The notes beneath the pieces were generated by a model, which made no database searches, was not told the origin of the DNA, and was given only the letters and a program-made list of their open reading frames with translations. 52,032 nucleotides of DNA, from positions 1 through 52,032 of IMG/VR virus record IMGVR_UViG_3300032320_001353, one strand, 5' to 3'. This document shows, one piece after another, positions 5,211-50,050 of this stretch. Both the position numbers and the translations under genes were made by a program. This DNA comes from a virus. Taxonomy: Duplodnaviria; Caudoviricetes. Numbering within the stretch: the stretch's first letter is position 1; every line of letters begins with the position of its first letter.

Positions 5211-7342
5211 TGAAAGAAACCTTCACTGCTACACAGAGAGAGATTGTGGCTAGAAAGATGGGCTATGAGGGGCCAATGCAGGGGTTCGATGAATTTCTGA
5301 TGTCCACCCCATCTCAGGCACAACGCTATTCCGACATCACCACTAAGTTTAGTCAGAAGATGGCTAGGGGTGGTGTTGTCAGGCGTTATGCTGCTGGTGG
5401 ATATACTGGTTCAGCAGAGCCAAATAAAGACATTATGCAAATGATTGTTGGTCTTAAGCCAACAGATATGTCTTATGATATTAATGGTGATGGTGAAGTA
5501 AATTTAACTGACTCTATTGGTTATAGTAAAGCAATGGCAGGACAAACTAATCTTGGTTTTACTCCTAGTAAAGATTCTAACTTCTCTGCTTATACAACTT
5601 ATGCAGCAGACCAAAAGAAGATTGCTGATGCTGCTAAAGCTGGAACAACCACTGTTGACACTAACATAGTTAATCCTACACAAGCAGGAGATACATTGGC
5701 TGGTGGGCCTGAGATGCCTAAATACACTGCTGTAGTTGCAAAGGAAACAGCAGTTACATCAGGCATGGCAGGTGCGGCTGATAAGGCAGCAGGGACAGCA
5801 ACAACTGGAACTGCTAGTAAAGTAGCAGATGCAGATGTTACGGGAGTGACTGCTCCTAATAAAGTGGTTGCTACAACAATAGCACCTGATGCGGCACAAA
5901 CTAAAGTAGAGACACAGTTAAAAAATCTGACAGCAGAGCAAGGAACTGTTTCTGATAAGGCACAAGTAACTGCCGCACAACAAGAGCCAACCACAACTGC
6001 TGTGGCTGGGGTTAAAGCTGCTCAAGCAGGAGCTGCGAAGGTGGTTGCACCAGCACAAAGAACTTTGCAAGAAGGTGAACTTGTTTCTGGTAGCACTGTT
6101 GACATGGCTAGAGTGGAAGACACACTAGCTAAAGCTCAAGCAGCAGAAGGCACTGTAACTGAAGAGATGACCGCACAAGGTCAGCTTAATAAACTGCTCA
6201 CAGATTTTGATGCTAAGACCCCTCCTCCTTGGGCTGCTGCTTCTATCAGGGCTGTCACAGCACAGCTTGCTGCCAGAGGCTTAGGTGCTAGTAGCTTGGC
6301 TGGACAGGCTGTCATTCAAGCCACATTGGAAGCTGGTGTACCAATTGCACAAGCTGATGCTAAAGTGTTTGCAGAGATGGGTCTTAGAAATCTTTCTAAT
6401 AGACAGCAAACAGCAATTCTTGTTGCTCAACAAAGAGCAGATTTTCTTAAGCAAGATTTTGATGATGCATTCAAAGCTAAAGTATTGAATGCTGCTAAAA
6501 TATCTGACATTGCAAATAAAAACTTTGATGCTGAAACAACCATTGCATTAGAGAATGCACGGCTTGCTAACAGTATAAACATTGCCAATCTATCAGCAGA
6601 CAATGCTGTGGTGTTGGCTAAGATGACTCAGATGGCATCGTTAGAAACAACCAATCTTAATAATAGACAACTGGCTGCTGTTCAAAATGCAAAAGCATTC
6701 TTAGAGATGGATGTTAAAAATCTAGAATTGAAGCAGCAGACAAATATATTTAAGACACAAAAAATAACAGACTCCATTGTTAGTGATACAGCAGCAGCTA
6801 ATGCTGCTAAAGCAGTCAATGCCACCAATGCTTTGGAGGCAGATAAGATTAATGCTACATTAGCTTTGACAGCAGATCAATATAATGCTGCTGAGAGAAA
6901 CAAAATTAAAGTTGCTAATATGAATGCGGCTAATGAGCTTATAAAGTTTAATGCTCAAGAGCAAAATAACAGGGAAGAGTTTAATTCTAGATTGGTTAGT
7001 GAAATTAATATAGCCAATGCAAAGATATTGGCAGATGTTTCAACAGCTAATACAAGAGAAGTCAATGCTGCTAATGCTGTGAATGCAAAGAATGCAACAG
7101 AATTATCTGGTGTTGCTTATACACAGTTGTCCCAAACCTATCGTGATAAATTAGAGATGTCGTGGAAGACAGGAGAGGCTGAGTTGACTAGGCTCATGGA
7201 ACTAGCGAGGGCTACAATTACAGCTAATGCTTCTGGCAATGCTGCTACAATTCAAGCTAATGCAAATGCTAATACATCAATTGGTAATTTGCTTGTAAAA
7301 GGATTAGACTTATGGGCACAGTCTGGATTTAAAGGCCTATAA
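5210..7342 (+). CDS. Internal virion (ejection) protein, Ala/Asn/Gln-rich
   Basis: 710 aa, helical composition, first of the large late genes. Contains MARGG and YAAGG tags and a DINGDGEVNLTD loop. Confidence 0.65.
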   Translation: MKETFTATQREIVARKMGYEGPMQGFDEFLMSTPSQAQRYSDITTKFSQKMARGGVVRRYAAGGYTGSAEPNKDIMQMIVGLKPTDMSYDINGDGEVNLTDSIGYSKAMAGQTNLGFTPSKDSNFSAYTTYAADQKKIADAAKAGTTTVDTNIVNPTQAGDTLAGGPEMPKYTAVVAKETAVTSGMAGAADKAAGTATTGTASKVADADVTGVTAPNKVVATTIAPDAAQTKVETQLKNLTAEQGTVSDKAQVTAAQQEPTTTAVAGVKAAQAGAAKVVAPAQRTLQEGELVSGSTVDMARVEDTLAKAQAAEGTVTEEMTAQGQLNKLLTDFDAKTPPPWAAASIRAVTAQLAARGLGASSLAGQAVIQATLEAGVPIAQADAKVFAEMGLRNLSNRQQTAILVAQQRADFLKQDFDDAFKAKVLNAAKISDIANKNFDAETTIALENARLANSINIANLSADNAVVLAKMTQMASLETTNLNNRQLAAVQNAKAFLEMDVKNLELKQQTNIFKTQKITDSIVSDTAAANAAKAVNATNALEADKINATLALTADQYNAAERNKIKVANMNAANELIKFNAQEQNNREEFNSRLVSEINIANAKILADVSTANTREVNAANAVNAKNATELSGVAYTQLSQTYRDKLEMSWKTGEAELTRLMELARATITANASGNAATIQANANANTSIGNLLVKGLDLWAQSGFKGL

Positions 7343-7351
7343 AGGAATGCA

Positions 7352-7570
7352 ATGAAACATATTAAAGTTTATTTGAATAAGGTAGAATCTATTTTAAAGA
7401 ATAGAAGCACAAAAGAAACAAAGCCTACAAAGAAAGCGGAAGGCTTTCTACAACCAATGAATAAACAAGAAGACATTTCTCCTAAGAAGAAAGATGATTT
7501 AGAAATCATTGCAGATTTTGTTCAGGGTATTCGTGATTCTAAAAAAGAGGTATTAAATGGAAAAAAATAA
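7352..7570 (+). CDS. Hypothetical protein
   Basis: AAGGA SD; 72 aa; overlaps the next gene. Confidence 0.65.
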   Translation: MKHIKVYLNKVESILKNRSTKETKPTKKAEGFLQPMNKQEDISPKKKDDLEIIADFVQGIRDSKKEVLNGKK

Positions 7571-8066
7571 AACATCTCCATTTGATGTAATTACACCAAC
7601 ACCGCCGGGAATTTCTTGGACGGCCCCAGAAAAAAGCCGCCCTTGGTTGCAACCACCAAAACTCACTAAAGTATATGATGTTGCTTCTAATTATGTTTCG
7701 TTGCTGTCTTCAAAAGAAATTGGTAATGAACTTTTAGATTCTCTAGAAACTGGTGTTCCTATTGCTGTCATTGCTGAATCATTAATGCTTGGTGCTGTAC
7801 ATCAAGGAGCACATACTATTGATGCTGGTATATTGGTAATGCCTGTCATTATCGAAATGCTACAAACAATTGCTGATTTTAACGATATTAAAGTTGTTAC
7901 TTTTCCAGAAGACTACGATAAAGAAAGCAATGTACCAGACAGAATAGCAAAGAGTGTAGTTAATAAACTAAACGAAAAGAAACAAGAGAAAGTAAATGAG
8001 CCAGTGGACAAAGAAACAACAGGCTTCATTTCTAAAAAAATAAAAGAGGTGTCTAATGCAACTTAA
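7557..8066 (+). CDS. Hypothetical virion-associated protein
   Basis: GAGG SD; PGISWT...RPWLQPP; lies in the internal-protein cluster. Confidence 0.7.
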   Translation: MEKNKTSPFDVITPTPPGISWTAPEKSRPWLQPPKLTKVYDVASNYVSLLSSKEIGNELLDSLETGVPIAVIAESLMLGAVHQGAHTIDAGILVMPVIIEMLQTIADFNDIKVVTFPEDYDKESNVPDRIAKSVVNKLNEKKQEKVNEPVDKETTGFISKKIKEVSNAT

Positions 8067-9567
8067 TTTACTTCACATCTTAGGTGGAGCAGCAGACCAA
8101 GCAGTTAAGTCTATTGAGCAAGAAGAAAAAGATGCTAGGGTAATTGCTGCTAATCAAGTTAAGAATCTGTATGAAAACTACATGGCTCTTAAAAATGATA
8201 ATACAGAACTAGAAAACAAACTTAAGAATAATTTGTCTATTGTTAAATCTGCTTATGGTACAGATTTGTCTGAGGCTCAGTTAGTAGACTTGGCTAAAAA
8301 CCCAATGGCTGTTAAAGTTATTACAGATGGCATATCTGCTGGTACTTTTAAGAAAGAGTTTATTACTCCAGCAGTATTGAGTGACATCACTTCTAATAAT
8401 CCCACAAGCAGGGGCGCTGCTGATAGTATTAGCGACATGCTTAAGATACCTCCTATGGCTGCTGCTGCTGTTTCTATGTATCAATCCAAAGGATTGTTCA
8501 GTGCCGCTGGAGATAATGCTGCTAGAAAGACTGCTGAAAGAACAGCAGCCCAGTATGGTATTCCATTAGAACAATTGCAAGGGGCTGTTGGATATAAGCG
8601 CCCAACTTTGGAATCTAAAGCAACTGTTAATTTAGAAGCAATGCAGGGGCCAAAGACTTTTGATAAGATGAAAGATGAGGCAATGCGAGAACTGCTTGCT
8701 GCACAGCAAAGCAAAGACGAACCAAGGATTACGGCAGCGGTTGAAAAAGCCACTCAAGTGAGGTTGACAGAAGACTTGTTCTCAGCAGCAGGAAAGAGAA
8801 CAGAAGCAGATATTCGTTCTGACTTAGCTAATAAAATTATTATAGCTGATAAAAAAGGATTGGATAAAGAAGTTGCTCTCCTTAAAACTGAACTTGAATA
8901 TAGAAAAACTTTATTGGATAAAGAAGAAAAAGATCCTAATAAGATTACTGCTGCCAACTACATGACTGCTGCAAGGAATGCTTTGGCATCAGCCATTATG
9001 GATAAGGTTCCTAAAGAAGCCTTCAATGTGGTAGAAAATCCAGATGGTAGTCAGCGAGTAGAATTGAAGACCTTCACTCATCAGAAGAAGTATGAAGAAG
9101 GCGTTAATATTGGAAGAGCCGCAGTTGTTAAAGAAATGACAAATGCAGAAGGCATGCCAAAAACAGAGATGCATAAACTTGCTATGTTGAATATTGGTAT
9201 TAGCTTTGATGCTAGTGGTAAAGCAATTGCAACCCCATATACCATACCAACAGCAACTAACACACCCGCTCCTTCCGCTAGTGGGTCTAGTGCTGCGCCT
9301 AGAGCAGGCACTGCTACACCTGCTGCGGCTCCTGCTCCCACTGGTGCTAGGGCTGTAACTGGTAAAGTTGGAGAGCCTGCTGCTCCTGTTGCTGCTCCCG
9401 CTACCGCTGCTGCTAGACCACCTGTTGCTCCCACTAAGCAAGTCACAATGGCTGAAGTTAATGCTTATTTAGCAAATAAGAATAAAAATCTTCCCCCTGA
9501 CAAACAGCTCACTGCTGCACAAGTAATAGCAGACTTGAAGAAAAATAACTATTCGGTTGTAGATTAA
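8056..9567 (+). CDS. Internal virion protein
   Basis: 503 aa, GAGG SD, Ala/Pro-rich C-terminal linker. Confidence 0.65.
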   Translation: MQLNLLHILGGAADQAVKSIEQEEKDARVIAANQVKNLYENYMALKNDNTELENKLKNNLSIVKSAYGTDLSEAQLVDLAKNPMAVKVITDGISAGTFKKEFITPAVLSDITSNNPTSRGAADSISDMLKIPPMAAAAVSMYQSKGLFSAAGDNAARKTAERTAAQYGIPLEQLQGAVGYKRPTLESKATVNLEAMQGPKTFDKMKDEAMRELLAAQQSKDEPRITAAVEKATQVRLTEDLFSAAGKRTEADIRSDLANKIIIADKKGLDKEVALLKTELEYRKTLLDKEEKDPNKITAANYMTAARNALASAIMDKVPKEAFNVVENPDGSQRVELKTFTHQKKYEEGVNIGRAAVVKEMTNAEGMPKTEMHKLAMLNIGISFDASGKAIATPYTIPTATNTPAPSASGSSAAPRAGTATPAAAPAPTGARAVTGKVGEPAAPVAAPATAAARPPVAPTKQVTMAEVNAYLANKNKNLPPDKQLTAAQVIADLKKNNYSVVD

Positions 9568-9575
9568 GGAACATC

Positions 9576-12500
9576 ATGTCACTTGTTAATGATTTTGAAA
9601 GTTTCATTGCTGCTCAACAATCCCAAGCTAAACAACCCGCCTCTCCTTCTATGGGAGATAGGGCAGAAATTACTGCTAATGATTTCGAAACTTTCAGACA
9701 GACAGCTTCCATTTTAAAGCCTGTTGAAGGCGCTGGTGGTGCTGCTTTTGGCGTGTTCAGGAAGCAGGACAAGAAGTCTTTAGACGAAAGACAAGCAAGA
9801 ATATTAGAAGAGAAAGCAAAACAAGAGGAAGGAAAAACTCCTTTTGCTCAGCTTTACCAAGACCCCGACACATTCAAAAAGATTAATGACTATGCTATTG
9901 CTAGGTTTGGTAAGGCAGGCTTGCCTTTGCCAGAAGAATCCAAAGAAGAATATGTAAAGCGTTGGGCTAGTCATATGCGTATGCTGTCCACTGGTAACTT
10001 GATCAGCGGCACACAAGAACTTAGTTATCTAAATAGCGCATCAAGAGCAGACTTGCTCAAGGCAAAGGATGCCTACGACTTGTTTGAAAACACAGCCAAT
10101 GCTTTCTCTCCTCAAGGCCAAAAAGGATTTAGACCTGTCTTAGATGTACTGGGCAGTGTGTTGTCTGACCCCACCACCGCCATCTCTTTAGGCGCTGGCA
10201 CATTGGCTAAGTCTGCTTTCTTGCAGAAGGCTTCACAGCAAGGCTTTAAGGCTGCTCTAGCTAGCAGACTTGGGGCCACTGCTGTCACTGCTGTGCCTGC
10301 TGTTGAGGGCACAGGTGCTGCTGTGTCTAATGTGCTGGAACAGAAAAGAAAAATTACTACTGATGCTGCCCAGTTGGCAGAGATAAAAGATATATTGCCC
10401 ACCCTCAGCCAAGAAGATCAGGCCAAGATTAAGCCTGATGTTGATGCTTTGGAGGCTAAGGTTAATGAGGGAGTGAGTGGTAAAGAGGTGGCCTTGGCTG
10501 GTGCTATTGGCGCTGTTGGTGGCACCTTGGAGACAGGTGCTTTGTTGCTTGCAGGAAGAGCCGCTAAGGGAGCTAAGCCAACCGCTTTGCAAGATGTCTT
10601 AGCAGGCCGTAAAAAGCCCGTAGAGACTGTTTCTCCCAAGGTTGAGGTGAAAGCCACAGACCCCACAGAAAAGGCGCTAGAAGACGCTTATGACATCTTT
10701 GAAGGCAGACGGCTGCTCAACGCTCAAGGAGAACCTACATCTGTTGCTGAGATGCAAATCAGAAATGATGTGAATAAGAAAGCCACAGAGATTGCTGGTG
10801 AGATATGGAGCCGTGTTCCTGACTTGGCACCAGCCGCTGACCAGAAGGTGAGCGATGCTGTTAAGAATGTTTTCTTGAACATCGACAAGATTGACAATGT
10901 TGTATTGGAAGATGCCTTGGCTAAGGCTGGTGTGACAGCAGAAGAGTTTGCCAGAATGAACAGGACAACAGCAGGTGATGCTGGTCGTACCTTGCAGGCT
11001 TATTCAGTGTTGGCTCGTATTCAAAACAAACTAAAGAGCATTGACCCAGCAGCAGCCAAAGAAGTTGACTTGATGTATGGAGATAGGAATGCTCTCACAT
11101 CAGCCTTCACTGGCCTAAAAGACTTGGGCATGCGTGTGGACAGAGAGCTTAAAGCTTTGATGGTGTCACAGCTTGCCACAACCATTCGTAACGGCTTCTC
11201 TGGCGCTGCTGTAGTGACCTTAGGCACAGCCTCAGAGGCCATTGAATCTGCTTTGTACAGGGCTGGTAAGACAGCCTATGAGCTGGGCAGTGGTAAGCCT
11301 TTGACAGGCAGTTTCACTGGCGGTGTTAAGGGTGTGTATGAGGATGCTGTCAGAACAGCCTTCTATCTGGGACAGAAAGACTTGTCCTCAGATGTTACAG
11401 AAGCTTTGCTTGCTGGTTCACCTGCACTGAGAAGCCGCATCCTGCGTACAGCAGGTGAGGCAGGAGTAAATGAATTGTCTAAGGTGGCTCAGATTGCTAA
11501 CACATTCAATGTGGCCCAAGACGCTTTCTTTCGCAAAGCCATCTTCACTTCCTCTGTTGAGAAACAACTCAGCCGTGTCGGCATAGACATGTATGATGTA
11601 CTGGCACAGGGAAAGAATGTGCCGTTTGATGTATTGAAAAATGCTACAGATGAAGCACTTGCTGCTACATTCAGCAAGATGCCCACCAAAGGGCCAATGT
11701 TCCATGCTGTTAAGTTTGTGGAAGAGCTTGGCCCAATTGGCTCCACTGTCATTCCCTTCCCTCGCTTTATGGCTAATGCCATGACATGGACATACAAGCA
11801 CAGCCCTATGGGCATGTTGTCTGGATCTGCTGATGTTACCAAGGGTGCCACCATGTTGGCTAAGGGTGATGAGACAGGACAGAGATATTTGACACAAGGC
11901 TTGGAGAATGTTTCCAAGGGTGCTGTAGGCACTGCTGCCATCTATGCTGCCTATAAATATCGTGAAGAAAACCAAGACACCTCTTGGTATGATATTAAGA
12001 ACCCAGATGGTAGCTTAGTGGATGCTAGGGCTTTGTTCCCTATGGCTCCCTTCCTAGCCCTTGGTGACTACCTTGTTAAATTTAACAAAGGTAGAACAGA
12101 TGAGTTTAAAACAAAAGAATTCTTAGAAGCAATGACAGGATTTAAAGCCCCTGCTGGAACCTACTCTTGGTTGGGAGATAAGTTTTCTGAATCACTGTCT
12201 AACATGCAGACAGGCGAAGGTAGTGCTGATAAGAAAATATCTACATTCTTTGGTGAGTGGGCTGGTGAATATTTCGGTAGAGCACTTGTTCCAGCGCAAC
12301 AACTTAGTGACATCATTGGTGCCATCGATAGAGATGAGACATTACCCAGAGATGCCTATCAAATTCCTGCTGGTGAAGAAGGCTTCTTATCTTCTGCTCA
12401 ACAGCAGTTGATGAAGCGCACTCCTGTTGTTAAGCAACAGCTTCCTGAATTTCAGCCAGCTACCAGAGAGCAAGCAGCTTTCAATGACTCTGGCCCGTTG

Positions 12501-15293: not shown

Positions 15294-15296
15294 ATG

Positions 15297-15370: not shown

Positions 15371-15379
15371 TTGATGAGT

Positions 15380-39879: not shown

Positions 39880-39980
39880 AAGGGAAACCCCTAATGGTGC
39901 AAACCCTGTAACACTTTTGCCGTCTAGGGAAAACCCTGTAATGCTTTTGAGGGAAGGGAAAACCCTGTAACACTTTTGGA
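39880..39980. repeat. About 30-bp tandem repeats AAACCCTGTAA(CA/TG)CTTTTG with AGGG-N4-CCCT palindromes
   Basis: Copies at 39901, 39931 and 39960. Confidence 0.85.
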
Positions 39981-41086: not shown

Positions 41087-41258
41087 GAAGTCTACGGTTA
41101 ATGCTGCTGGTAATTATACAAAACCAACAATGAGAAAAGCATTGGTGGCTAAGGTGAAGGCTGGCACAAAGGGTGGTAATCCGGGTGAGTGGTCGGCTAG
41201 AAAAAGTCAAATTGTTGCTAAGGAATATAAAGCAAAAGGTGGTGGCTACCGTGATTAA
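41079..41258 (+). CDS. Small basic hypothetical protein
   Basis: NYTKPTMRK...GEWSARKSQ...YKAKGGGY; AAGGA SD. Confidence 0.7.
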   Translation: MDKKSTVNAAGNYTKPTMRKALVAKVKAGTKGGNPGEWSARKSQIVAKEYKAKGGGYRD

Positions 41259-41484
41259 ACCCTCTCAAAAGTCGTTAAAGGAATGGACTGAGCAGAAATG
41301 GACAACCAGCGATGGGAGTCCTTCAAAGGGAAAGAAGAGATATCTTCCTGAGGCTGCTTGGAAGAGTTTGTCTGCTCAGGAGAAAGCTGCCACAAATAAA
41401 GCTAAGGCTGCTGGTAACAAGCAAGGCAAGCAGTTTGTTGCTCAGCCAAAGGCCATAGCAAGAAAGGTAGCGAAATATAGATGA
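41251..41484 (+). CDS. Small basic hypothetical protein
   Basis: GTG start; SLKEWTEQKW...RYLP...KQFVAQP. Confidence 0.7.
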   Translation: MIKPSQKSLKEWTEQKWTTSDGSPSKGKKRYLPEAAWKSLSAQEKAATNKAKAAGNKQGKQFVAQPKAIARKVAKYR

Positions 41485-41789
41485 CTATTGAATACAGGGG
41501 TAAAACCTTTGAAGGCTATAATAAGCCTAAGAAATCAGACAAGCCAGAAAAGAAGATGATGGTGCTGGCAAAAGAAGGAAGTGTGGTAAAACTCATTCAC
41601 TTCGGGGATGCTTCTATGGGACACAATTATTCTCCAGAAGCAAGGGCTAGTTTTAAAGCAAGGCATGCTGAGAACATTGCTAAAGGGAAAATGAGTGCTG
41701 CTTATTGGGCTAATAAGGAGCTTTGGGCTGGAGGTGGTGGTAGTGTTAAACAACCCCCTAAAGGTCAGAAACAGAAGTTTGGAAAATAA
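41481..41789 (+). CDS. Small basic hypothetical protein
   Basis: GYNKPK...LIHFGD...SFKARH...SAAYWA. Confidence 0.75.
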   Translation: MTIEYRGKTFEGYNKPKKSDKPEKKMMVLAKEGSVVKLIHFGDASMGHNYSPEARASFKARHAENIAKGKMSAAYWANKELWAGGGGSVKQPPKGQKQKFGK

Positions 41790-42256
41790 TGGCTACAAGT
41801 AAAGGCAGCAAAAGAGGCATTGATGAGCAGCAGCTAGAAGGCGGTGGTGGAGGTAGTGGTATTTCTGGCACCAAGTGGAGCAGCATGCCTTCTCTTAAAA
41901 GCAATGCCAGCACTATGGATGACTTAAAGAAAATAGTCTCTGAACCAAATACAAAGCTTAAGGGTGCTGCAAAGGCAGCTAAAGAAGAAGCCATTGACAG
42001 AGCCATCACCAGAACTGCTGTTAGGGCTGGGGCTGCTGGCGCTGCTGGAGCCGCTGTGGCTTCTAGCATAGGTGGTGCTACAGCCACTGAAGGTAGGCAA
42101 AGCAACGGCAGCGATAACGAATTTATGGGATCTGCTAAGAGAGACTCGGGAAATCCCACAGAATACTCAGGAACTGGTATGGCTAAGGGTGGTATGGTTA
42201 ACAAGAAGAAGATGGCATACAATGCTGTGTATATGGGTAAAGACAAAAGGAAATAA
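41789..42256 (+). CDS. Hypothetical protein with MAKGG tag
   Basis: TAATG coupling; 155 aa. Confidence 0.65.
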   Translation: MATSKGSKRGIDEQQLEGGGGGSGISGTKWSSMPSLKSNASTMDDLKKIVSEPNTKLKGAAKAAKEEAIDRAITRTAVRAGAAGAAGAAVASSIGGATATEGRQSNGSDNEFMGSAKRDSGNPTEYSGTGMAKGGMVNKKKMAYNAVYMGKDKRK

Positions 42257-42258
42257 TT

Positions 42259-42558
42259 ATGGCAACAGACGCAGAGAAAGTTAAGAAATATAGAGACATG
42301 GCTGAGGATAAAACCATCCCTCAAGATGTTAGAAACACCTACCTAGACAAGGCCAATGCCATTGAGCTTAAATCCTTTGAAGACTACAAAGCTGGTGGCA
42401 CACAGACCAATAAGCCTTCCAATGCTCCTGCTTCTGCAACAAAGAAGAAAGAGATGGCTAAGGGTGGTTATGCCACCAAGAAGCCTATGATGATGAATAA
42501 GGGTGGCTATGCCAACTGTGGAGCTTCTATGGCTCCTCAACAAAAAGCTAAGAAATGA
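42259..42558 (+). CDS. Hypothetical protein with MAKGG/MNKGG tags
   Basis: AAGGA SD; 99 aa. Confidence 0.65.
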   Translation: MATDAEKVKKYRDMAEDKTIPQDVRNTYLDKANAIELKSFEDYKAGGTQTNKPSNAPASATKKKEMAKGGYATKKPMMMNKGGYANCGASMAPQQKAKK

Positions 42559-43049
42559 AACTTCCAGTAAAATATTCAACAGATCAAAAGCTAAGGGCTT
42601 TGTCTTTGAAATCTAAGGATAGATCATTACCTTTTAGTGAGAGGTCGCAAGCTGAAGACCAATATGAAGCTTTAGCATCTAAAGAGTATGCTAAAGGTGG
42701 TGTTATTAAGAAGGAAACTATTATGGCAACGAAGAAAATGTCTGAGTATGGTGGTAAAGAAATGTATGCTTCTAAGGCTGCAATGATGAAGCATGAGAAG
42801 AAAGAACCCATGAAGATGGAAAAGAAAGAAGCCATGATGGCTAAGGGTGGTATGACCAAGAAGCCTGTGCTTGCCATTATGATTGGAATGGGTAAGCCTA
42901 AGAAAGACATGGCTAAAGGTGGTATGGCTAAGAAGGGCTATGCCGCTGGTGGTATGGCTATGGTTGAAAAAGATGGGAAGAAAGTACCAGCTTTTGCCGC
43001 TGATGGTGTTGGCAAAATGGCTAAAGGTGGCATGACTAAGAAGAAATAA
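42555..43049 (+). CDS. Met/Lys-rich protein with five AxGG tags (possible internal start at 42723)
   Basis: YAKGG, MAKGG x3 and YAAGG; an AAGGA SD precedes the internal MATKK. Confidence 0.7.
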   Translation: MKLPVKYSTDQKLRALSLKSKDRSLPFSERSQAEDQYEALASKEYAKGGVIKKETIMATKKMSEYGGKEMYASKAAMMKHEKKEPMKMEKKEAMMAKGGMTKKPVLAIMIGMGKPKKDMAKGGMAKKGYAAGGMAMVEKDGKKVPAFAADGVGKMAKGGMTKKK

Positions 43050-43050
43050 T

Positions 43051-43215
43051 ATGGCTACACAATTAACAAAGAAACAAACTGCTAAGGTTGGTAAGGTTAT
43101 GCGTGAGTTTAAGGCTAAGGGGCTGCACAGCGGTAAAGGTGGCCCCGTGGTTAAAAACCCAAAGCAAGCTGTAGCCATTGCTTTGTCTGAAGCTTCTAGA
43201 ATGAAGAAGAAGTAA
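43051..43215 (+). CDS. DUF6496-like small basic protein (54 aa)
   Basis: KVMREFK..GLHSGKGG.VVKNPKQAVAIALSEA. Confidence 0.75.
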   Translation: MATQLTKKQTAKVGKVMREFKAKGLHSGKGGPVVKNPKQAVAIALSEASRMKKK

Positions 43216-43565
43216 TGGCAGATTTTAAGTCTAAAACATATAACATAGCATGCATTGTGAGAGATCAAGTGTATACGCTATATACATGTCCCCAAAATTG
43301 TAGAGCACATATGAATTTGTTGTACATAGCTAATGCTTCAACAACAACCCCTGCCATTACTATTGAATGGGAAAGAGCCAATGGTTCTCATATGCACATC
43401 ATTGGGGATAAAAACATGACTGCTGGAGAAACCATTCAATGGTCAGGCAACTACATTGTATTTGAAGCTGGAGATACTATGACAGCTACAGCAAGTGCTC
43501 ATGCTAGCCCACACATTGATGTCTTGTGTACTGTAGAAGAATTCTTCTTAGCTAACAGAGCATAA
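43215..43565 (+). CDS. Hypothetical (probably structural) protein
   Basis: LYTCP...IAN...FEAGD beta-rich pattern. Confidence 0.65.
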   Translation: MADFKSKTYNIACIVRDQVYTLYTCPQNCRAHMNLLYIANASTTTPAITIEWERANGSHMHIIGDKNMTAGETIQWSGNYIVFEAGDTMTATASAHASPHIDVLCTVEEFFLANRA

Positions 43566-43583
43566 TAATTAGAAAGAAATAAA

Positions 43584-43955
43584 ATGGCTAAAGAACTGAC
43601 AGACAAACACAAGAAGTTTCTTGATGTTTTATTTGATGAGGCTGGTGGCAATGCCACAGCAGCTAAGCGTCTTGCTGGCTTTTCTGATGGCTATAGCACC
43701 AGAGAAATCACCAACTTCTTGAAAGAAGAAATTGTAGAAGCCACCCAGCTTTATATTGCCATGAATGCTCCTAAGGCGGCTAGAGCCATTGTTGATGGTA
43801 TAATGTCCCCCACTGAGCTTGGTATTAAAGAGAAGCTGAATGCTGCTAAAGATTTGTTGGACAGGGCTGGCTTTGTTAAGACAGACAAGGTGCAGGTTGA
43901 AACTAATAACGGCATTATGATTTTGCCAGCAAAGGATAGAGCGGAAGAGGATTGA
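43584..43955 (+). CDS. Putative terminase small subunit
   Basis: LTDKHKKFL...AKRLAGFS HTH, AAKDLLDRAG and ILPAK; upstream of terL. Confidence 0.6.
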   Translation: MAKELTDKHKKFLDVLFDEAGGNATAAKRLAGFSDGYSTREITNFLKEEIVEATQLYIAMNAPKAARAIVDGIMSPTELGIKEKLNAAKDLLDRAGFVKTDKVQVETNNGIMILPAKDRAEED

Positions 43956-43956
43956 T

Positions 43957-44442
43957 ATGGACAGAGGTGTTGGTAAGTGGATATTGCCTCAGCCAGATAA
44001 CAGAGTGGAATATATACCAATCCCGATGATGGGAACATTGGCTCCATTTGGTTATAAAATAGATGAAGAAAGAGAAGGATGGCTTATTCCCATTCAATCA
44101 GAACTAGATGCTTTAGAAAAAGCTAAGAAGCATTTAAAACAATATGGATTGAGGGCTGTTGCTGCTTGGTTGTCAACAGCTACAGGTAGGCCAATATCCC
44201 ACGCAGGACTTAATAACAGATTAAAATATGAGCAGTCGTACAAGAGAAGAGCTAAAGCTTACCGCAAGCTTGCCCAAGGGTACGAAGAAGCCCTTAGGAA
44301 GGCCGAAGCGTACGAAAGAAGAGCCAACACCACAGCAGAAAGCTACTTCGACTCAGAAGAATACAGAAGGGTTAGAAACACCTTCTCTGATGATAGTGAC
44401 AGAGCCGATAGCTGCTCAGCAAAATGTAATATTCAAGCCTAA
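43957..44442 (+). CDS. Hypothetical DNA-binding protein
   Basis: PFGY...LRAVAAWLS..TGR.ISH.GL; GAGG SD; overlaps the terL 5' end. Confidence 0.65.
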   Translation: MDRGVGKWILPQPDNRVEYIPIPMMGTLAPFGYKIDEEREGWLIPIQSELDALEKAKKHLKQYGLRAVAAWLSTATGRPISHAGLNNRLKYEQSYKRRAKAYRKLAQGYEEALRKAEAYERRANTTAESYFDSEEYRRVRNTFSDDSDRADSCSAKCNIQA

Positions 44443-45814
44443 TGTAGGGCCGCAGACAGCGTTCTTAGCGGCCTCTGAAAGAGAAGTGTTATATGGTGGG
44501 GCTGCTGGTGGTGGTAAAAGTTATGCCATGCTGGCAGACCCCATTAGATATTTAAATCACCCTCAGTTTTCTGGATTGTTGCTACGCCACACAACAGAAG
44601 AACTTAGAGAACTCATTTGGAAAAGCCAAGAGATATATCCCAAGATTTATCCCGGCATCAAGTGGAGTGAGAGAAAGATGCAATGGCAAACACCTTCTGG
44701 TGCTAGGCTGTGGATGTCATATCTGGATAGAGATGAAGATGTGTTGAGATATCAGGGGTTGGCCTTTAGCTGGATTGGTTTTGATGAGCTAACCCAGTGG
44801 CACACCCCTTTTGCTTGGAACTATATGCGTTCTCGCTTGCGTACACCCGCAGCAGATCTGCCTATTTTTATGAGAGCAACAACAAACCCCGGTGGGCCGG
44901 GACATGCTTGGGTTAAGAAGATGTTTATTGACCCTTCTCCATCTAGAAAAGCCTTCTGGGCTACAGATATTGAGACAGGGGAGACACTAGCCTACCCCAA
45001 AGGGCATAGCAAAGAGGGACAGCCTCTTTTTAAACGCCGCTTTATACCAGCAATGCTGACAGATAACCCCTATCTAGCTGATAGCGGCGACTACGAAACC
45101 ATGTTGTTGTCTCTTCCTGAGCATCAACGCAAGCAATTGCTTGAGGGTAACTGGGATATTGCGGAAGGAGCAGCCTTCCCTGAGTTTAATAGGGCTGTTC
45201 ATGTGGTGAATAGCTTTGAAATACCCAAAAACTGGGTAAAATTTAGGGCGTGTGACTATGGATATGGTAGTTTTAGTGCTGTTGTATGGTTTGCTGTCAC
45301 CCCTAGTGAGCAACTTGTCCTCTATCGTGAACTATATGTTAGCAAAGTGCTGGCAAAAGACCTTGCACACATGATATTGCAGGCAGAAGCCAACGATGGT
45401 GGCATCAGATATGGTGTGTTGGACAGTAGTTGCTGGCATAAGAGAGGGGATACAGGCCCATCGCTAGCAGAACAGATGATTATGGAGGGCTGTAGATGGA
45501 GGCCAGCAGATAGAAGTGCTGGAAGTAGGGTAGCAGGGAAGAACGAATTTCATAGAAGACTACAAATTGACCCATTTACAGAACAACCAAGAATGATTAT
45601 AACAAGCAACTGTGTTAATACGATTGCTCAAATCCCTGTGCTTCCTTTAGATAAAAAGAACCCAGAAGATATTGATACAAGGACAGAAGATCATCTTTTT
45701 GATGCTATACGATACGGAATTATGAGTAGACCTAGAAGCGGGCTGTTTGATTATAATCCTCTTCACTCTGGAAAAGGCGGCATGAGAATAGCTGATCCTA
45801 TTATGGGGTACTAA
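44228..45814 (+). CDS. terL: Terminase large subunit (alternative start 44390)
   Basis: Walker A GGAAGGGKS, Walker B IGFDEL, ATTNPGG, nuclease DYGY and DHLFDAIRY. Confidence 0.93.
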   Translation: MSSRTREELKLTASLPKGTKKPLGRPKRTKEEPTPQQKATSTQKNTEGLETPSLMIVTEPIAAQQNVIFKPNVGPQTAFLAASEREVLYGGAAGGGKSYAMLADPIRYLNHPQFSGLLLRHTTEELRELIWKSQEIYPKIYPGIKWSERKMQWQTPSGARLWMSYLDRDEDVLRYQGLAFSWIGFDELTQWHTPFAWNYMRSRLRTPAADLPIFMRATTNPGGPGHAWVKKMFIDPSPSRKAFWATDIETGETLAYPKGHSKEGQPLFKRRFIPAMLTDNPYLADSGDYETMLLSLPEHQRKQLLEGNWDIAEGAAFPEFNRAVHVVNSFEIPKNWVKFRACDYGYGSFSAVVWFAVTPSEQLVLYRELYVSKVLAKDLAHMILQAEANDGGIRYGVLDSSCWHKRGDTGPSLAEQMIMEGCRWRPADRSAGSRVAGKNEFHRRLQIDPFTEQPRMIITSNCVNTIAQIPVLPLDKKNPEDIDTRTEDHLFDAIRYGIMSRPRSGLFDYNPLHSGKGGMRIADPIMGY

Positions 45815-46315
45815 ATGGAAATAATTACTAGAAAAGAAGCAAAAGAACTTGGTTCTTTATTTTATTTTACAGGTCTAGCATGTCCTTATGGACATATAGT
45901 AAGAAGATACACAAAAACTTCTAACTGTGTAACTTGTCATGCTATTTATTATGCTAGTGATGAGCAAAAAAATAAACAAAAAGAATATAGAGAAAAACAC
46001 AAAAAAGAAAAAGCTGTTTATGATAAAAATTTTTCAAAGGAAAACGCGGCATATCGTAATTCGTTAAAGTCTGCGAATAGAGCTAAAAGAAAACAAAGAA
46101 TAGTTCCGTGGGATAAAGAGCTTACTGATTTTGTTACAATTGAAGCTTACGACTTAGCTAAATTAAGAAACAAAGTTACAGGTATTAGTTGGCATGTGGA
46201 TCATGTCATACCTTTGTGTGGTAAGAATATTTGTGGTCTTCATGTATGGAATAATCTAAGAGTTATTCCCGCCTCAGAAAATCTGAGGAAAGGTAATAGA
46301 ATAGATAAGGAATAA
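45815..46315 (+). CDS. HNH homing endonuclease (free-standing)
   Basis: YFTG..C..GH...C..C, WHVDHVIPL, GLHVWNNL and EN..K.N; AT-rich. Confidence 0.88.
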   Translation: MEIITRKEAKELGSLFYFTGLACPYGHIVRRYTKTSNCVTCHAIYYASDEQKNKQKEYREKHKKEKAVYDKNFSKENAAYRNSLKSANRAKRKQRIVPWDKELTDFVTIEAYDLAKLRNKVTGISWHVDHVIPLCGKNICGLHVWNNLRVIPASENLRKGNRIDKE

Positions 46316-46316
46316 T

Positions 46317-48419
46317 ATGGCAGAGATGAAACCTATGCTTGGTGACAAAACCCTAGCTTTAGACGATGTAAAGAATAAAGAAGACGAAGGCGTATCAATT
46401 GATGGCCTTGTCAGCTATATCAACGAAAGATATACAAGATCTGAAGAGAGCAGGCGTAAGGATGAGACACGCTGGCTGAGAGCCTATAGAAACTACAGAG
46501 GCATCTATGGGCCAGATGTTCAATTCACTGAGACTGAGAAGTCGAGAGTGTTTATTAAAGTTACCAAAACTAAAACACTGGCAGCTTATGGACAAATAAC
46601 AGATGTGTTATTTTCCAATAACAAGTTTCCTCTGTCTGTTGACCCCACAGTGTTGCCTGATGGCGTGGTAGATAGCGTCAGTTCTGACCCCAAAGGAACA
46701 CCCTCCACTAAGACAGGCCCAACAGAGATTCCTTATGGTGAAGCAGGTGGTGCCAGCATTCCTAAAGACTTCGACTTAGACAAGCTTGAAGAATTGCTAG
46801 GGTCTATGAAAGACGATCTTAAAGATCTGCCTAATTTGAAAGAAGGGCCGGGAGCAACTCCCACTTCCATGACCTTTAGTCCTGCTATGGTGGCAGCTAA
46901 GAAGATGGAGAAGAAGATACATGACCAACTAGATGAAACAGGTGCTTCTAAGCATCTGCGTTCTACAGCCTTTGAGATGGCTCTGTTTGGCACTGGTGTT
47001 ATGAAGGGGCCGTTTGCCACCAATAAGGAATATGCCAATTGGGGTGAAGATGGTACATATAGTCCTCTGATTAAGACAGTGCCAGAAGCTGCCCATGTTT
47101 CTCTCTGGAACTTCTATTGGGATCCTGATGCCAACAACACTGATGAGTGTCAGTATGTTATTGAGCGTCATAAGATGAGCAAGACAAAGCTTCGTGCTTT
47201 GAAACAACGCCCATATTTCAGAGGCAATGTTATTGACCAACTCATTGATGAAGGTGAGACATACACCAAGAAATATTGGGAAGACGATCTAAGAGACTAT
47301 GCTCCCAACTTTGGTGTTGAGCGTTTTGAGGTGTTGGAATATTGGGGCAATGTAGATATTGAATTGCTTCAAGAGAATGATATTGTTATTCCTGATGACA
47401 TGCTCAGTGCTGGAGAACTCCAAGCAAACATTTGGTATTGCAATGGAAAAATATTGAGGCTTGTTCTCAATCCATTCAAGCCTGCAAAGATTCCCTATTA
47501 TGCTGTGCCTTACGAATTAAACCCCTACTCTCTAGCAGGTGTAGGTGTCGCCGAAAATATGGACGATACCCAAACCTTAATGAATGGTTTTATGCGTATG
47601 GCTGTGGATAATGGGGTCTTATCTGGAAACCTTGTCTTTGAAATTGATGAAACAAACTTAGTGCCGGGACAAGACTTATCTGTCTATCCCGGTAAAGTGT
47701 TTAGAAGACAAGGTGGTGCTCCCGGTCAAGCTTTGTTTGGAACAAAGTTTCCAAATGTGGCAGCAGAGAATATGCAACTGTTTGATAAAGCAAGACAGCT
47801 TGCTGATGAATCAACTGGTATGCCTTCGTTCTCTCATGGACAGACAGGAATATCTGGTGTAGGTAGAACAGCTAGTGGCATCAGCATGTTGATGAATGCT
47901 GCTAGTGGAAGTATCAAGACAGTTATTAAAAATCTGGATGACTACCTCCTTGGCCCCATTGGTCAAGCCTTCTTCAACTTCAATATGCAGTTTGACTTTG
48001 ATAAAGAAATCAAAGGAGACTTGGAAGTTACAGCTAAAGGCACAGAAAGCTTGATGGCTAATGAGGTGAGAAGCCAACGCTTGATGCAATTCTTGCAGAT
48101 TGCCAGCAGCCCAGCCTTGATGCCCTTTGCTAAGTTTCCTTACATCATCAGAGAAATTGCAAAGAGCATGGACTTAGACCCAGAGAAGGTGACTAACAAC
48201 ATGGATGAAGCCATGCGTCAAGCAGTGTTGTTGCAACAGACACAGCCTGCCCCTGCCCCTGCCGCTGGTGGACAGCCTCCACAAGGCGTTGCTGGGCCTC
48301 CCGGTGTAGCTGATATGACAGGTGGTGGCGGTGGTAACATTGGTGTTGGCGCACCGCCTTCACCAGAGATGCAAGGATTTAGTGGAAATGAGCAACAAGC
48401 CGTACCTCCCCAAGCTTAA
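46317..48419 (+). CDS. Portal protein
   Basis: 700 aa after terL; FGTGVMKG, FYWDP, GVGVAE and RTASGISML; Pro/Gly tail. Confidence 0.85.
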   Translation: MAEMKPMLGDKTLALDDVKNKEDEGVSIDGLVSYINERYTRSEESRRKDETRWLRAYRNYRGIYGPDVQFTETEKSRVFIKVTKTKTLAAYGQITDVLFSNNKFPLSVDPTVLPDGVVDSVSSDPKGTPSTKTGPTEIPYGEAGGASIPKDFDLDKLEELLGSMKDDLKDLPNLKEGPGATPTSMTFSPAMVAAKKMEKKIHDQLDETGASKHLRSTAFEMALFGTGVMKGPFATNKEYANWGEDGTYSPLIKTVPEAAHVSLWNFYWDPDANNTDECQYVIERHKMSKTKLRALKQRPYFRGNVIDQLIDEGETYTKKYWEDDLRDYAPNFGVERFEVLEYWGNVDIELLQENDIVIPDDMLSAGELQANIWYCNGKILRLVLNPFKPAKIPYYAVPYELNPYSLAGVGVAENMDDTQTLMNGFMRMAVDNGVLSGNLVFEIDETNLVPGQDLSVYPGKVFRRQGGAPGQALFGTKFPNVAAENMQLFDKARQLADESTGMPSFSHGQTGISGVGRTASGISMLMNAASGSIKTVIKNLDDYLLGPIGQAFFNFNMQFDFDKEIKGDLEVTAKGTESLMANEVRSQRLMQFLQIASSPALMPFAKFPYIIREIAKSMDLDPEKVTNNMDEAMRQAVLLQQTQPAPAPAAGGQPPQGVAGPPGVADMTGGGGGNIGVGAPPSPEMQGFSGNEQQAVPPQA

Positions 48420-48603
48420 ACCCTTAGTAAATAACAATTTACAGTGGGATGCTTTTGTGGAAATGTTAGACAATGAGATTGATAGTCAGCATAAGAAGCT
48501 TGAACAGTCTAAAGATGTTCAAGATATTTATCAATCTCAAGGAGCCATTAGTGCTCTGCGTAGACTTAAATATTTAAAGGATGAGATAAATGCTCAGCAA
48601 TGA
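48388..48603 (+). CDS. Small conserved protein downstream of portal
   Basis: LKPLVN...QSQG.I.ALR.LK.LKDE. Confidence 0.65.
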   Translation: MSNKPYLPKLKPLVNNNLQWDAFVEMLDNEIDSQHKKLEQSKDVQDIYQSQGAISALRRLKYLKDEINAQQ

Positions 48604-50050
48604 AACACAAAAACTTCTGGCAGAAGGCGGCATGCCAGATGAAGGAAATACAGTTGATCCTGTTAGCGGCAATCAAGTTCCTCCCGGTGCTATGCAAGAA
48701 GAAGTGAGGGATGATATTCCTGCACAACTAAGTGAGGGTGAGTTTATTTTTCCTGCTGATGTAGTTAGATATATTGGCCTAGAAACACTAATGAAGATTA
48801 GAGATAAGGCCAAATCTGGATTAAAGAGAATGGAAGACATTGGTCAAATGGGAAACGCTAATCAAGTAGAAAACCCAGAAGCCCTTCATTCATCAGGAGA
48901 AGACATAAATGATGAAGATTTTTCATCCTCTATAGATGAGATTATGAATGAAGGCAACCCTGAAGAAAGAAACTATGCCACTGGTGGTAATGTAACACCA
49001 GTATCTGGTTTTGAAATGGTGAAGTATAAAGACGCAAATGGTAACTTTATGTATGTTCCTTTTGTTAAAGGACAACCTCTTTTAAAAATACCCGCTGGAT
49101 ATACCAGAGTGTCGGGGCCAGAAGATACTACTACGAAAACAACTACAACTGGTGGTGGGGGTAGCGGAACTACTCAAACTACTTCTGGAGGAGATGGTGG
49201 CGGTGGTGAAGGCGGCAGCAGTTCATCCTCCTCAGGTGGTGTTAATGCGGACGGCTCAGTGAGTGTTGGAGGAATGACAGGTTTTAGTGTTGGTACAAAT
49301 GGGGTGGCTTCTGCTAATATGAGTTCTACTACTGGTAGTATTGCTGGAAGCATATTGGGGGCCGTCACAGGAATAGGCTTTCTGGGAGCCATCGGAAGAG
49401 GTCTTGGAATGATAGGCGAATCTAATGCGGCTGCTTTTAATGCCTCTGTTGCAGACAGTTCTGATCAAGCTGGACAAGGAGCTACAGCAACCGCAGGCCC
49501 ATCTGGTACTGGTGGTGTAGCCGCTTCCGCTGCTGGGGCAGTTGCTGGTGCTGCACAGTCAGCAGGTATGTCAGCAGAAGCCGCTGCTATTGGGGCACAA
49601 GCCGCTGCTGATGCAGCAGTGCAGGGGGCTGATGCTATTGGTGCCTTTGCCGCTGGCTTTGCAGCAGCAGAGGCCGCTAATGACGCACAAGGAACGGCTG
49701 GAGAAGGCTTTGGAGGAACTGGTGCTGTTGGTAGTGGAGATCTAGGAAGCATTGGTGGAGAGGGTTTTGGTGGAGAAGGCGGCGTTGGTGTTGGTGGTGA
49801 TGCTGGTCTTGGTGGGCTTGGTAGTTCTGGTGGTGAAAGTGGCGGTGCTGATGCTGGCGGTAGTGGTAGTTCTGATGGTGGTGGCGGTGCTGCTGGCGGC
49901 GGTGATGGTGGAGGTGGTGCTGCTGGCGGCGGTGATGGTGGAGGTGGTGGTGGTGGAGATGGCGGTGGTGGGGGTGGCGGTGACGGCGGCGGTGGTAGCG
50001 GTGATGCTAAAGGCGGCTTTGTTTCCAAGAAGTATAGAAAGAAAAAATAA
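48590..50050 (+). CDS. Virion protein with DDIPAQLSEGEF domain, AxGG tags and Gly-rich tail
   Basis: AAGGA SD; LAEGG, YATGG and DAKGG; central hydrophobic Gly/Ala segment. Confidence 0.7.
   Translation: MLSNETQKLLAEGGMPDEGNTVDPVSGNQVPPGAMQEEVRDDIPAQLSEGEFIFPADVVRYIGLETLMKIRDKAKSGLKRMEDIGQMGNANQVENPEALHSSGEDINDEDFSSSIDEIMNEGNPEERNYATGGNVTPVSGFEMVKYKDANGNFMYVPFVKGQPLLKIPAGYTRVSGPEDTTTKTTTTGGGGSGTTQTTSGGDGGGGEGGSSSSSSGGVNADGSVSVGGMTGFSVGTNGVASANMSSTTGSIAGSILGAVTGIGFLGAIGRGLGMIGESNAAAFNASVADSSDQAGQGATATAGPSGTGGVAASAAGAVAGAAQSAGMSAEAAAIGAQAAADAAVQGADAIGAFAAGFAAAEAANDAQGTAGEGFGGTGAVGSGDLGSIGGEGFGGEGGVGVGGDAGLGGLGSSGGESGGADAGGSGSSDGGGGAAGGGDGGGGAAGGGDGGGGGGGDGGGGGGGDGGGGSGDAKGGFVSKKYRKKK
49886..49945 (+). 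repeat. 30-bp tandem duplication in the Gly-rich tail
   Basis: GGTGCTGCTGGCGGCGGTGATGGTGGAGGT x2. Confidence 0.9.

Follow-up and report, generated by a model that had tools for sequence, protein, structure and literature searches.

The 52,032-base stretch of DNA analysed here (the window) is the entire IMG/VR virus record IMGVR_UViG_3300032320_001353, with a completeness estimate of 93%, and a short Gly-Gly peptide tag recurring in its late proteins is the subject of this analysis. The portal protein of the window (46317-48419, + strand) showed 71% identity to the portal of Puniceispirillum phage HMO-2011, 55-71% identity to portals of Roseobacter CRP phages and 82% identity to that of an uncultured phage record with Manatee Spring as the stated source, and the window was therefore classified as an HMO-2011-type podovirus. 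The late genes occupy the + strand (40793-52032, continuing in 1-15293) and the early/replication genes the - strand (15357-40044). The late order starts with seven small basic proteins followed by the small (43584-43955) and the large terminase (44228-45814), continues with an endonuclease VII/HNH-like gene, the portal, a protein of 486 amino acids (aa), a 284-aa scaffold-like protein and the major capsid protein, and ends with tail genes, a membrane protein, a Peptidase_M15_3 endolysin and a 115-aa HExxH protein. Downstream of the latter, proteins of 710, 72, 169, 503 and 1905 aa are encoded.

The pattern [FYML]-A-x-G-G had been described in a sequence-only reading of the window as present in about 17 copies in six otherwise unrelated + strand proteins. 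All 17 copies were found to translate exactly, in six long + strand open reading frames (ORFs; 5210-7342, 9576-15293, 41789-42256, 42259-42558, 42555-43049 and 48590-50050). The supposed lack of relationship did not hold, as the three small proteins form one superfamily. Thirteen copies fit the pattern and four are looser (YKRGG, YKAGG, MNKGG and DAKGG). As had been noticed, a hydrophobic residue usually came next (15 of 17 copies), with at least one Lys/Arg within the next six positions in 13 of 17.

Enrichment was evaluated in a set of 84 ORFs against 2000 within-protein shuffles that kept the composition. The late (+ strand) proteins contained 13 strict matches vs a shuffle mean of 1.39, and 0/2000 shuffles reached 13. 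Shuffling inside 30-residue blocks gave a mean of 1.35, again with 0/2000 reaching the observed count; local Gly/Lys richness therefore does not account for the number of tags. For the six-mer form, with a hydrophobic residue after GG, 12 matches were detected in late proteins vs 0.35 expected. The early (- strand) proteins contained one strict match (YAGGG) vs 0.49 expected and no six-mers, in agreement with the proposed confinement of the tag to late proteins.

Because the pattern had been defined post hoc, other genomes were tested as well. The six-mer was enriched on the late strands of five relatives, namely G001 (7 vs 0.75 expected), G002 (8 vs 0.84), G003 (5 vs 0.77), G004 (6 vs 0.67) and HMO-2011 (4 vs 0.64, with 2/500 shuffles reaching 4), their early strands having 0-1 six-mers. 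Two of the matches in G001/G002 (VATGGV and IAAGGV) belong to a tail-like protein of 660 aa, homologous between the two, and probably do not represent the tag. No enrichment was found in the outgroup Vibrio phage CHOED (1 vs 0.67 expected), which has portal, terminase, capsid and scaffold in common with the HMO-2011 group and in which the 486-aa family was not found. T7 and N4 showed no comparable tag system, T7 having isolated look-alikes only. Across 80 loci around related portal genes, 179 matches were located in + strand ORFs and 3 in - strand ORFs, with at least one match in 61 of the loci.

The consensus derived from 42 pooled instances was M/L/Y/F, A, K (also E/T/A), G, G, M/V/L/Y, V/A, x, K/R, K/R. 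The residue after GG, hydrophobic by the definition of the pattern, was M in 16 instances, V in 11, L in nine, Y in four, and F and I in one each; the second residue after GG was V in 14 and A in six. Synonymous codons differed among the copies (AAG/AAA, GGT/GGC/GGG/GGA and GCT/GCC/GCA), so that selection acts on the peptide sequence. An explanation by a conserved DNA word was rejected for this reason, GGT still being preferred (24/34 Gly codons vs 308/720 in late genes). Where a tag contains A-G-G with Ala encoded by GCT, the DNA reads GCTGGTGG, the E. coli Chi octamer (5390-5397, 42388-42395 and 42942-42949); these three octamers probably result from codon choice, and E. coli is not the host.

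Pfam and PHROGs searches with the six tagged proteins revealed no family beyond sub-threshold noise, and a full-text literature search with the tag pentapeptides gave no description of the motif among the 25 titles listed out of 481 matching papers, most of these titles being about PCR primers or 'YAAGGS' Gleason grading. As a short linear motif, the tag is real and runs through the whole lineage of HMO-2011-type podoviruses. Its form is [M/L/Y/F]-A-x-G-G-[M/V/L/Y/F], with V/A and two to three Lys/Arg after it in most copies; it is enriched, late-restricted, invariant in position and located at module boundaries. It occurs in two settings, in tandem in small, basic, mostly disordered proteins and as single copies at the junctions or termini of large ones. 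Its placement at termini and domain boundaries, also anticipated, was observed at module ends of the large proteins and at several C-termini. Four of the six window proteins (1905, 155, 164 and 486 aa) carry it C-terminally, and the other positions are N-terminal, internal or tandem.

The 486-aa post-portal protein (48590-50050, + strand) comprises a tagged conserved N-domain (aa 1-175), a variable Gly/Ala/Ser-rich part and a basic tagged tail, and 3400 representatives of its family were found at E<=0.001 in a 50%-identity library. Two tags lie in the N-domain, LAEGG at 48617-48631 (aa 10-14) and YATGG at 48974-48988 (aa 129-133). Their Gly residues (G13, G14, G132 and G133) were invariant in 38/38 aligned sequences, as were S48, G50, E51, A56, D57 and V58 of the conserved core LSEGEFIFPADVVRYIG, which includes a GEFIF segment (48737-48751, aa 50-54). 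The core consensus was ..VSGN.VP.G....EVRDDI.A.LSEGEF[VI].PADVVRY.GL..LM..R..AK.GL..M...GQMGN. The YATGG tag marks the boundary between an acidic linker and a beta-meander (aa 141-174) predicted with a local distance difference test score (pLDDT) of ~90. The loose tag DAKGG (50003-50017, aa 472-476) is followed by FVSKKYRKKK at the C-terminus. A hydrophobic-x-x-G-G-hydrophobic tag was present in the last 35 residues of 172 of 264 family members, the tail form being hydrophobic-AKGG[L/F]V.K+, ~15 residues and KRGLASRK.

No Pfam family was assigned to the 486-aa protein at E<=0.1 and nothing consistent appeared across the 38 N-domain sequences, while the N-domain profile gave noise only (E~0.7-0.9) against PDB sequences. 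In the ESM Atlas, the N-domain fell among unnamed viral clusters, with one neighbour at 0.81 ('crAss cargo protein 1') flagged as often due to chance. A predicted complex of the capsid, the scaffold-like protein and the 486-aa N-domain with the first 80 aa of the 710-aa protein, run without controls, obtained a score of 0.01 and a mark of 0.32, which speaks neither for nor against binding. In some lineages (L092:8441-12019, L024:5880-8025 and L028:9087-12077), the post-portal protein is encoded by two ORFs with the break after the acidic linker; the second ORF then finishes with the beta-meander, and there is no second tag.

The 710-aa protein (5210-7342, + strand), probably an internal/ejection protein, showed no Pfam, PHROG or PDB match. 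Its conserved N-module of ~50 aa closes with two tags; the middle of the protein varies, and the last third is again conserved. In the first tag, MARGG (5360-5374, aa 51-55), M51, A52, G54 and G55 were invariant in 6/6 aligned N-termini together with the following V57, and so were G63 and G64 of the second, YAAGG (5387-5401, aa 60-64). In the family, the N-module ends in MAKGG (MAKGGM at aa 52 in HMO-2011 gp25), a second tag comes within 4-8 residues and the sequences then diverge until the C-terminal third.

The giant 1905-aa protein (9576-15293, + strand) is conserved over a trunk (aa ~3-1136) and varies in the C-terminal remainder. Its FATGG tag (12969-12983, aa 1132-1136) stands at the trunk end, and tblastn similarity to G003 spans aa 3-1136; equivalent trunk-end tags are YAGGGL 1256 in G001, YALGGI 1203 in G003 and YQVGGF 1167 in G004. 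Further copies are LAKGG (14892-14906, aa 1773-1777) and the loose YKRGG (15258-15272, aa 1895-1899), located six residues before the C-terminus and followed by LARRKM. In the homologues, the C-terminal tags are at position 1903 of 1912 (G001), 1826 of 1835 (G003) and 1716 of 1725 (G004), so that all four giant proteins, the window included, carry a tag 3-10 residues from the C-terminus. The segment of ~115 aa between LAKGG and YKRGG (aa ~1778-1894, ..GYFGELTTKEGEVATELSSEFEYKGKTVEHPLLVPTLTKDEV..) resembles a small folded module. The giant protein had no PDB sequence match, and its ESM Atlas neighbours (LPD38/LPD3/MuF_C/ART-PolyVal) scored 0.78-0.83, under the 0.9 bar, which gives no more than a lead towards a polyvalent-protein-like nature. 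An ADP-ribosyltransferase-like assignment of aa ~1430-1500 was rejected, as the best BLASTP E-value against the ART-PolyVal carrier P0154 was 0.11 and PF18760 was not found in the window.

The small tagged proteins have isoelectric points (pI) of 9.7-11 and 16-26% Lys+Arg, and are mostly predicted disordered. The 155-aa Gly/Ala/Ser-rich basic protein (41789-42256, + strand) carries one tag, MAKGG, at 42179-42193 (aa 131). It had no tblastn homologue in six genomes, and its gene is therefore the least certain of the tagged set. The 99-aa basic protein (42259-42558, + strand) consists of a conserved N-terminal helix region and a tail with YKAGG (42385), MAKGG (42454) and MNKGG (42493). An alignment of 29 sequences of its family showed repeating (M/L)AKGG units and a C-terminal module KGG[YM]ANCGAS..P.QKAKK. 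The 164-aa Lys/Met-rich protein (42555-43049, + strand) contains five strict tags, YAKGG (42687), MAKGG (42837, 42909 and 43017) and YAAGG (42939). AlphaFold2 (AF2) predicted for it a helical hairpin at aa 9-47 (pLDDT ~90) ending at the first tag, aa 48-133 and 153-164 having pLDDT values under 50.

The 99-aa and 164-aa proteins are members of a large, low-complexity Lys/Met/Gly/Ala-rich superfamily with shuffled mini-modules. These comprise (K)KG[M/Y]A[K/R]GGM.KK repeats, a (D/N)GKKVPAFAADGKGK element between tags, a KPVVAIMIGxxKPK element and alternative C-terminal modules. Related viral contigs contained tandem arrays of the types (KKGMAKGGMxKK)n, MRGGGMAKKK and MARGGM with a repeat of 10-11 residues. 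Scanning viral contigs for MAKGGM.KK yielded at least 120 stretches, from which 80 loci were tabulated; 62 of the 80 had an ORF fitting a stricter pattern, 45 of them with and 17 without tblastn matches to other late window proteins. Some KGG-repeat members carry a LysM domain (L157 and L130; Pfam, E 1e-13), a hint of periplasmic action. The larger LysM-bearing members are L157:11918-12814 and L130:6973-8151, to which L131, L171 and L217 were added by eye.

The seven small proteins (pI 9.7-11) encoded in a row upstream of the terminase (41173-43215) also include a DUF6496 protein (43051-43215, 1.1e-08) and a 102-aa protein matching an internal segment of phrog_220, 'minor head protein and DNA pilot' (1.1e-16). 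Two - strand ORFs, 41758-42324 (188 aa) and 42672-43268 (198 aa), lie antisense over the small tagged genes, and a length-greedy gene caller chooses them over the real + strand genes; automatic annotation may therefore miss tagged small proteins.

Outside the tagged genes, the portal matched phrog_332 (2e-78) and is of the N4/T7 type, and the relatives of the phage are podoviruses. The 284-aa acidic scaffold-like protein (50241-51095, + strand; phrog_13678, pI 5.0) lacks the tag and is encoded between the 486-aa protein and the capsid gene. The record ends divide the major capsid gene (51418-52032 and 1-261), leaving a frame of 86 aa for the 5' end and 205 aa for the 3' end. As the capsid protein of relatives is 353-356 aa long, the record is short of ~60 capsid codons, and a capsid gene cut by both ends indicates a permuted, nearly complete genome. 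The endonuclease VII/HNH-like gene between the large terminase and the portal (45815-46315; phrog_1035, 8e-21) had a tblastn match in one of six compared genomes (G004) and is probably a mobile homing endonuclease. The 3939-5210 region resembles a lysis cassette with a holin-like membrane protein, the Peptidase_M15_3 endolysin (4.8e-22) and the 115-aa HExxH protein (4863-5210, + strand; HEILH at 5070-5084, phrog_1233). The gene of the latter is directly upstream of the 710-aa gene, and its Pfam matches were weak, sub-threshold metallopeptidase families only (E ~0.08). No match to a phage collection was obtained in a megablast search with 41000-52032.

Among known systems, the closest in sequence is a C-terminal module that occurs in many siphophage tape measure proteins, among them gpH of lambda, in which FATGG (733), GEFVF (754) and YATGG (778) are indeed present, as suggested in the sequence-only reading. 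The gpH stretch 731-787 reads ..FHFATGGFTGTGGKYEPAGIVHRGEFVFTKEATSRIGVGNLYRLMRGYATGGYVG.. and is not covered by any Pfam model. The 486-aa protein and gpH have in common a tag, a short Gly-rich stretch, GEFVF (GEFIF in the window), a helix (..RIG..L..L) and a second tag (Y-A-T-G-G-Y in gpH), in collinear order (window aa 10-15, 50-54, 56-83 and 129-134 vs gpH 733-738, 754-758, 759-775 and 778-783). Aligning the 38-sequence N-domain profile with the gpH C-terminus by hhalign also gave a collinear match with an E-value of 0.0013 and a probability of 18.7% against a single-sequence template, and homology of the N-domain to the gpH module is therefore likely, not proven. With gpH 715-800, tblastn matched 1004 phage records, mostly Klebsiella/Escherichia phages and some Arthrobacter phages. 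Most of the 40 matches listed were annotated as tape measure proteins, and the 120 protein homologues listed included only E. coli/Shigella tape measure proteins of 99-100% identity. Unlike a tape measure protein, the 486-aa protein has no TMP_2 or Tape_meas_lam_C domain and the phage is short-tailed.

In the parts of PMC12617516 concerned with gpH, the protein is described as shedding a C-terminal piece of ~14 kDa from a glycine-rich region, with the exact site and enzyme reported as not known, and residues ~690-817 were not resolved by cryo-EM. Computed fragments were 12.2 kDa for a cut after FATGG737 and 13.7 kDa for a cut after residue 722. In lambda (L105, 3739-3903 and 5277-5876), the gpH tags adjoin the region of the gpH to gpH* cleavage, and gpK has, beside NlpC/P60, a JAB-like match below the threshold (Prok-JAB, 23.3 bits vs a cut-off of 25). 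Taken together, these suggest the position after FATGG737 as a candidate cleavage site. The one mapped tape-measure cleavage, that of T5 pb2, is given in PMC10038345 as occurring after R1127, not after GG.

In architecture, the closest counterparts are the polyvalent/MuF-type carriers, which likewise are encoded beside the portal and combine a conserved module with effector domains swapped among relatives; the tag is not mentioned in the portions of PMC5512222 underlying this comparison. Several unrelated effector domains on the conserved carrier module were encountered in relatives of the 486-aa protein. P0154 and P0188 contain ART-PolyVal (PF18760) at aa 71-247 upstream of the conserved core with a tag at 272, and P0109 contains Phage_lysozyme2 (PF18013) and LysM (PF01476, 275-316), its tags being at 322 and, for the core, at 700. 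In the window's own proteins no such domains were found, and MuF, ART-PolyVal and MPTase-PolyVal domains were not detectable. The swapped domains around a conserved tagged module fit the earlier proposal of interchangeable cargo; packaging of the 486-aa protein with the DNA is suggested by gene order (portal, tagged protein, scaffold and capsid).

In function, the small T7 proteins gp6.7 and gp7.3 appear to be the nearest analogues. They are likewise small, basic and largely unstructured virion proteins encoded upstream of the portal. As described in the relevant sections of PMC11784390, they dock short loops on the portal, core and nozzle, and K84 and K85 of gp7.3, directly after A-R-A-G-G, contact the DNA end. 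The T7 sequences read A-R-A-G-G-K84-K85 in gp7.3 and S-A-F-G-G-K-K at the end of gp6.7. Unlike in the HMO-2011 group, no tag enrichment and no sequence homology were detected in T7, and N4 and CHOED are also without the tag.

Other short signals resemble the tag in part. T4 capsid-targeting sequences and encapsulin cargo-loading peptides are short shared terminal peptides that load unrelated cargo into an HK97-fold shell, and the T4 signal doubles as a protease site. These have another consensus, whereas the tag is also internal and tandem and no S77 protease was detected above the cut-off in the genomes searched. Adenovirus protease sites, (M/I/L)XGG|X, recur in DNA-associated virion precursors, including small basic ones, but belong to an unrelated virus lineage and have the form hydrophobic-x-G-G instead of hydrophobic-A-x-G-G; the residue two before GG was A, K or N in all 17 window copies, with the hydrophobic residue one further upstream (D in one copy). 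RGG/KGG boxes are low-complexity nucleic-acid-binding regions with closely spaced [K/R]-G-G and aromatic/Met residues in disordered basic proteins, and such tandem [K/R]GG units in a disordered basic region were found here too. Unlike these boxes, the tag conserves Ala and both flanking hydrophobic residues and occurs in non-basic contexts. Tested by their defining features, the tag does not qualify as one of the protease-based systems, and it belongs to no Pfam or PHROG family.

It is quite possible, and tentatively preferred here, that the tag is a docking or anchoring peptide of virion-internal proteins that are ejected. Within the particle, the hydrophobic-GlyGly-hydrophobic core would take the form of an extended strand or a turn and attach to a structural component, for which the candidates are the portal/core, the scaffold, the inside of the capsid and the strand module of GEFV type found alongside the tag. 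Packaged DNA would be contacted by the positively charged residues that mostly come next. Multiple copies in the small Lys/Met-rich proteins would give avidity, and one to three tags at the ends of conserved modules would recruit large proteins together with a fused variable domain. This docking role is favoured because both sides of GG are conserved (a bulky hydrophobic residue, then a beta-branched or small one), which suggests recognition of the entire unit and not of a bond to be cut. It is also favoured because many tags are located at the extreme C-terminus, the usual place of targeting peptides, because AF2 placed tags in low-confidence/disordered segments at the edges of confident folds and because the valency fits many-copy small proteins holding few-copy large ones. 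Further reasons are the structural precedent of T7 gp6.7 and gp7.3, the lack of a matching protease above the cut-off in the phage genomes searched, and the failure to find the HExxH protein in two tag-bearing genomes.

The competing explanations account for parts of these data. A chance or compositional artefact of Gly/Lys/Ala-rich late proteins could be suspected, as the pattern was defined after looking and several copies lie in low-complexity, internally repetitive proteins. Its probability is negligible, and it is refuted by both kinds of shuffles, by the repeated enrichment in five other genomes and not in CHOED, by the strand bias over 80 loci and by the invariant GG columns. It is unlikely, though worth weighing, that the tag serves proteolytic maturation, with a peptidase of the phage or the host cutting behind or inside GG to release N-terminal targeting modules, variable effector domains or short basic peptides, on the model of T4 capsid-targeting sequences, adenovirus sites or polyvalent proteins processed by metallopeptidases. 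Tags do lie exactly at junctions (the end of the 710-aa N-module, the end of the 1136-aa trunk, and between ART-PolyVal or LysM and the core in relatives), gpH is cut in its Gly-rich C-terminal region (PMC12617516) with 12.2 kDa computed after FATGG737 vs ~14 kDa reported, and gpK combines NlpC/P60 with the sub-threshold Prok-JAB match. In the passages of PMC5512222 on polyvalent proteins, processing by zincin-like peptidases is proposed, and a small HExxH protein gene is adjacent to the 710-aa gene. However, proteases of the S49, S77 and S78 families (PF01343, PF03420 and PF04586), which go with prohead processing of the T4, HK97 and lambda C types, and of the C5 and C48 families (PF00770 and PF02902) were found above the cut-off in 0/5 genomes (the window and G001-G004), the sub-threshold matches being S49 in G001 (15.4 bits) and C48 in a 705-aa open frame of G004 (12.5 bits). 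Prok-JAB (PF14464) gave no match in the window or G001-G005, and MPTase-PolyVal none in the window. For the HExxH protein, previously named as the candidate peptidase, tblastn homologues were present in G001, G003 and G004 and were not found in G002 or HMO-2011, which retain tags. A bulky hydrophobic residue is conserved at P1', and cutting at those tags that lie 3-10 residues before the C-terminus would take off very little; a binding element explains both features better than a cleavage site does. The mapped T5 pb2 cut is not at GG (PMC10038345), and the spacing differs from the adenovirus consensus, with the hydrophobic residue three positions before GG rather than one.

A low probability is also given to a tag without a specific receptor, a KGG/RGG-box-like polycation core that would bind or neutralise packaged DNA or, after ejection, anionic envelope polymers, and act as a generic sticky element in large proteins. 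The high pI, Lys/Arg content and predicted disorder of the small proteins, the tandem KGG arrays of related contigs, LysM in L157 and L130 and the DNA contact of the gp7.3 Lys pair after AGG (PMC11784390) are in accordance with this, whereas the core is kept in acidic or neutral contexts (LAEGGMPDE/FAEGGMNDEGG with GG in 38/38, and lambda FATGGFTG/YATGGYVG). Ala and both flanking hydrophobic residues are conserved beyond what charge neutralisation needs, and the KGG stress-repeat family (PF10685) was not among the Pfam matches of the three small proteins at E<=0.1. It seems quite doubtful that the tag is a homotypic self-association element, kinked, Gly-rich and flanked by aromatic/Met residues, through which small proteins and DNA would condense in the procapsid with the large proteins as clients. 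The valency (three to five or more tags in small disordered proteins vs one to three in large ones), the accompanying strand-like elements (GEF[VI].PADVV in large and VPAFAADG in small proteins) and the tag pair flanking GEFVF in the multimeric lambda tape measure protein could be explained in this way, but the AF2 monomer did not pair the tags with the GEFIF segment and literature searches found no experimental or structural phage precedent for what is so far a purely inferential scheme.

Several observations weigh against the docking peptide as well. The partner, the binding by the tag and the location of the tagged proteins in the virion are presumed, the last from gene order, size and analogy. 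No virion proteome of an HMO-2011-type phage was found in the literature, supplementary tables being outside the search; a text count in PMC9038755 gave zero for each of 'proteom', 'mass spectrometry' and 'internal'. The N-terminal tags of the 486-aa protein (hydrophobic-AEGG-hydrophobic, then acidic) and the lambda tags are without a basic flank, and the DNA-contacting part is therefore not general. Lambda tails assemble without portal, scaffold or capsid, so that, if the function is shared, the partner would be none of these three. Moreover, the lineages with a split post-portal protein have the break just before the second tag, which they lack, and the tandem arrays of 10-11 residues would equally suit a polycation without specificity or a precursor cleaved into small peptides.

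A broader proposal, which must be regarded as a long shot, is a Gly-Gly code common to long- and short-tailed phages on proteins that exit ahead of the DNA. In lambda, it would direct the gpH to gpH* cut after FATGG737, possibly by the JAB-like part of gpK. In HMO-2011-type phages, it would serve both to bring interchangeable effector domains into the capsid, by multivalent association (tag with tag or tag with strand) involving the small KGG proteins and DNA, and to free them once ejected.

HMO-2011-type phages are described as a dominant and widely distributed marine viral group (PMC9038755), and their large late proteins are without annotation. The tag gives a handle on these proteins: it predicts which are virion-internal, delimits their modules and helps to find swapped effector domains. 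The link with lambda bears on the old question of gpH cleavage and, since the gpH module adjoins a cleavage whose site and enzyme are unmapped, the tag yields a specific hypothesis testable by mass spectrometry. If the tag is a loading signal, it would be usable for packaging foreign proteins into phage particles.

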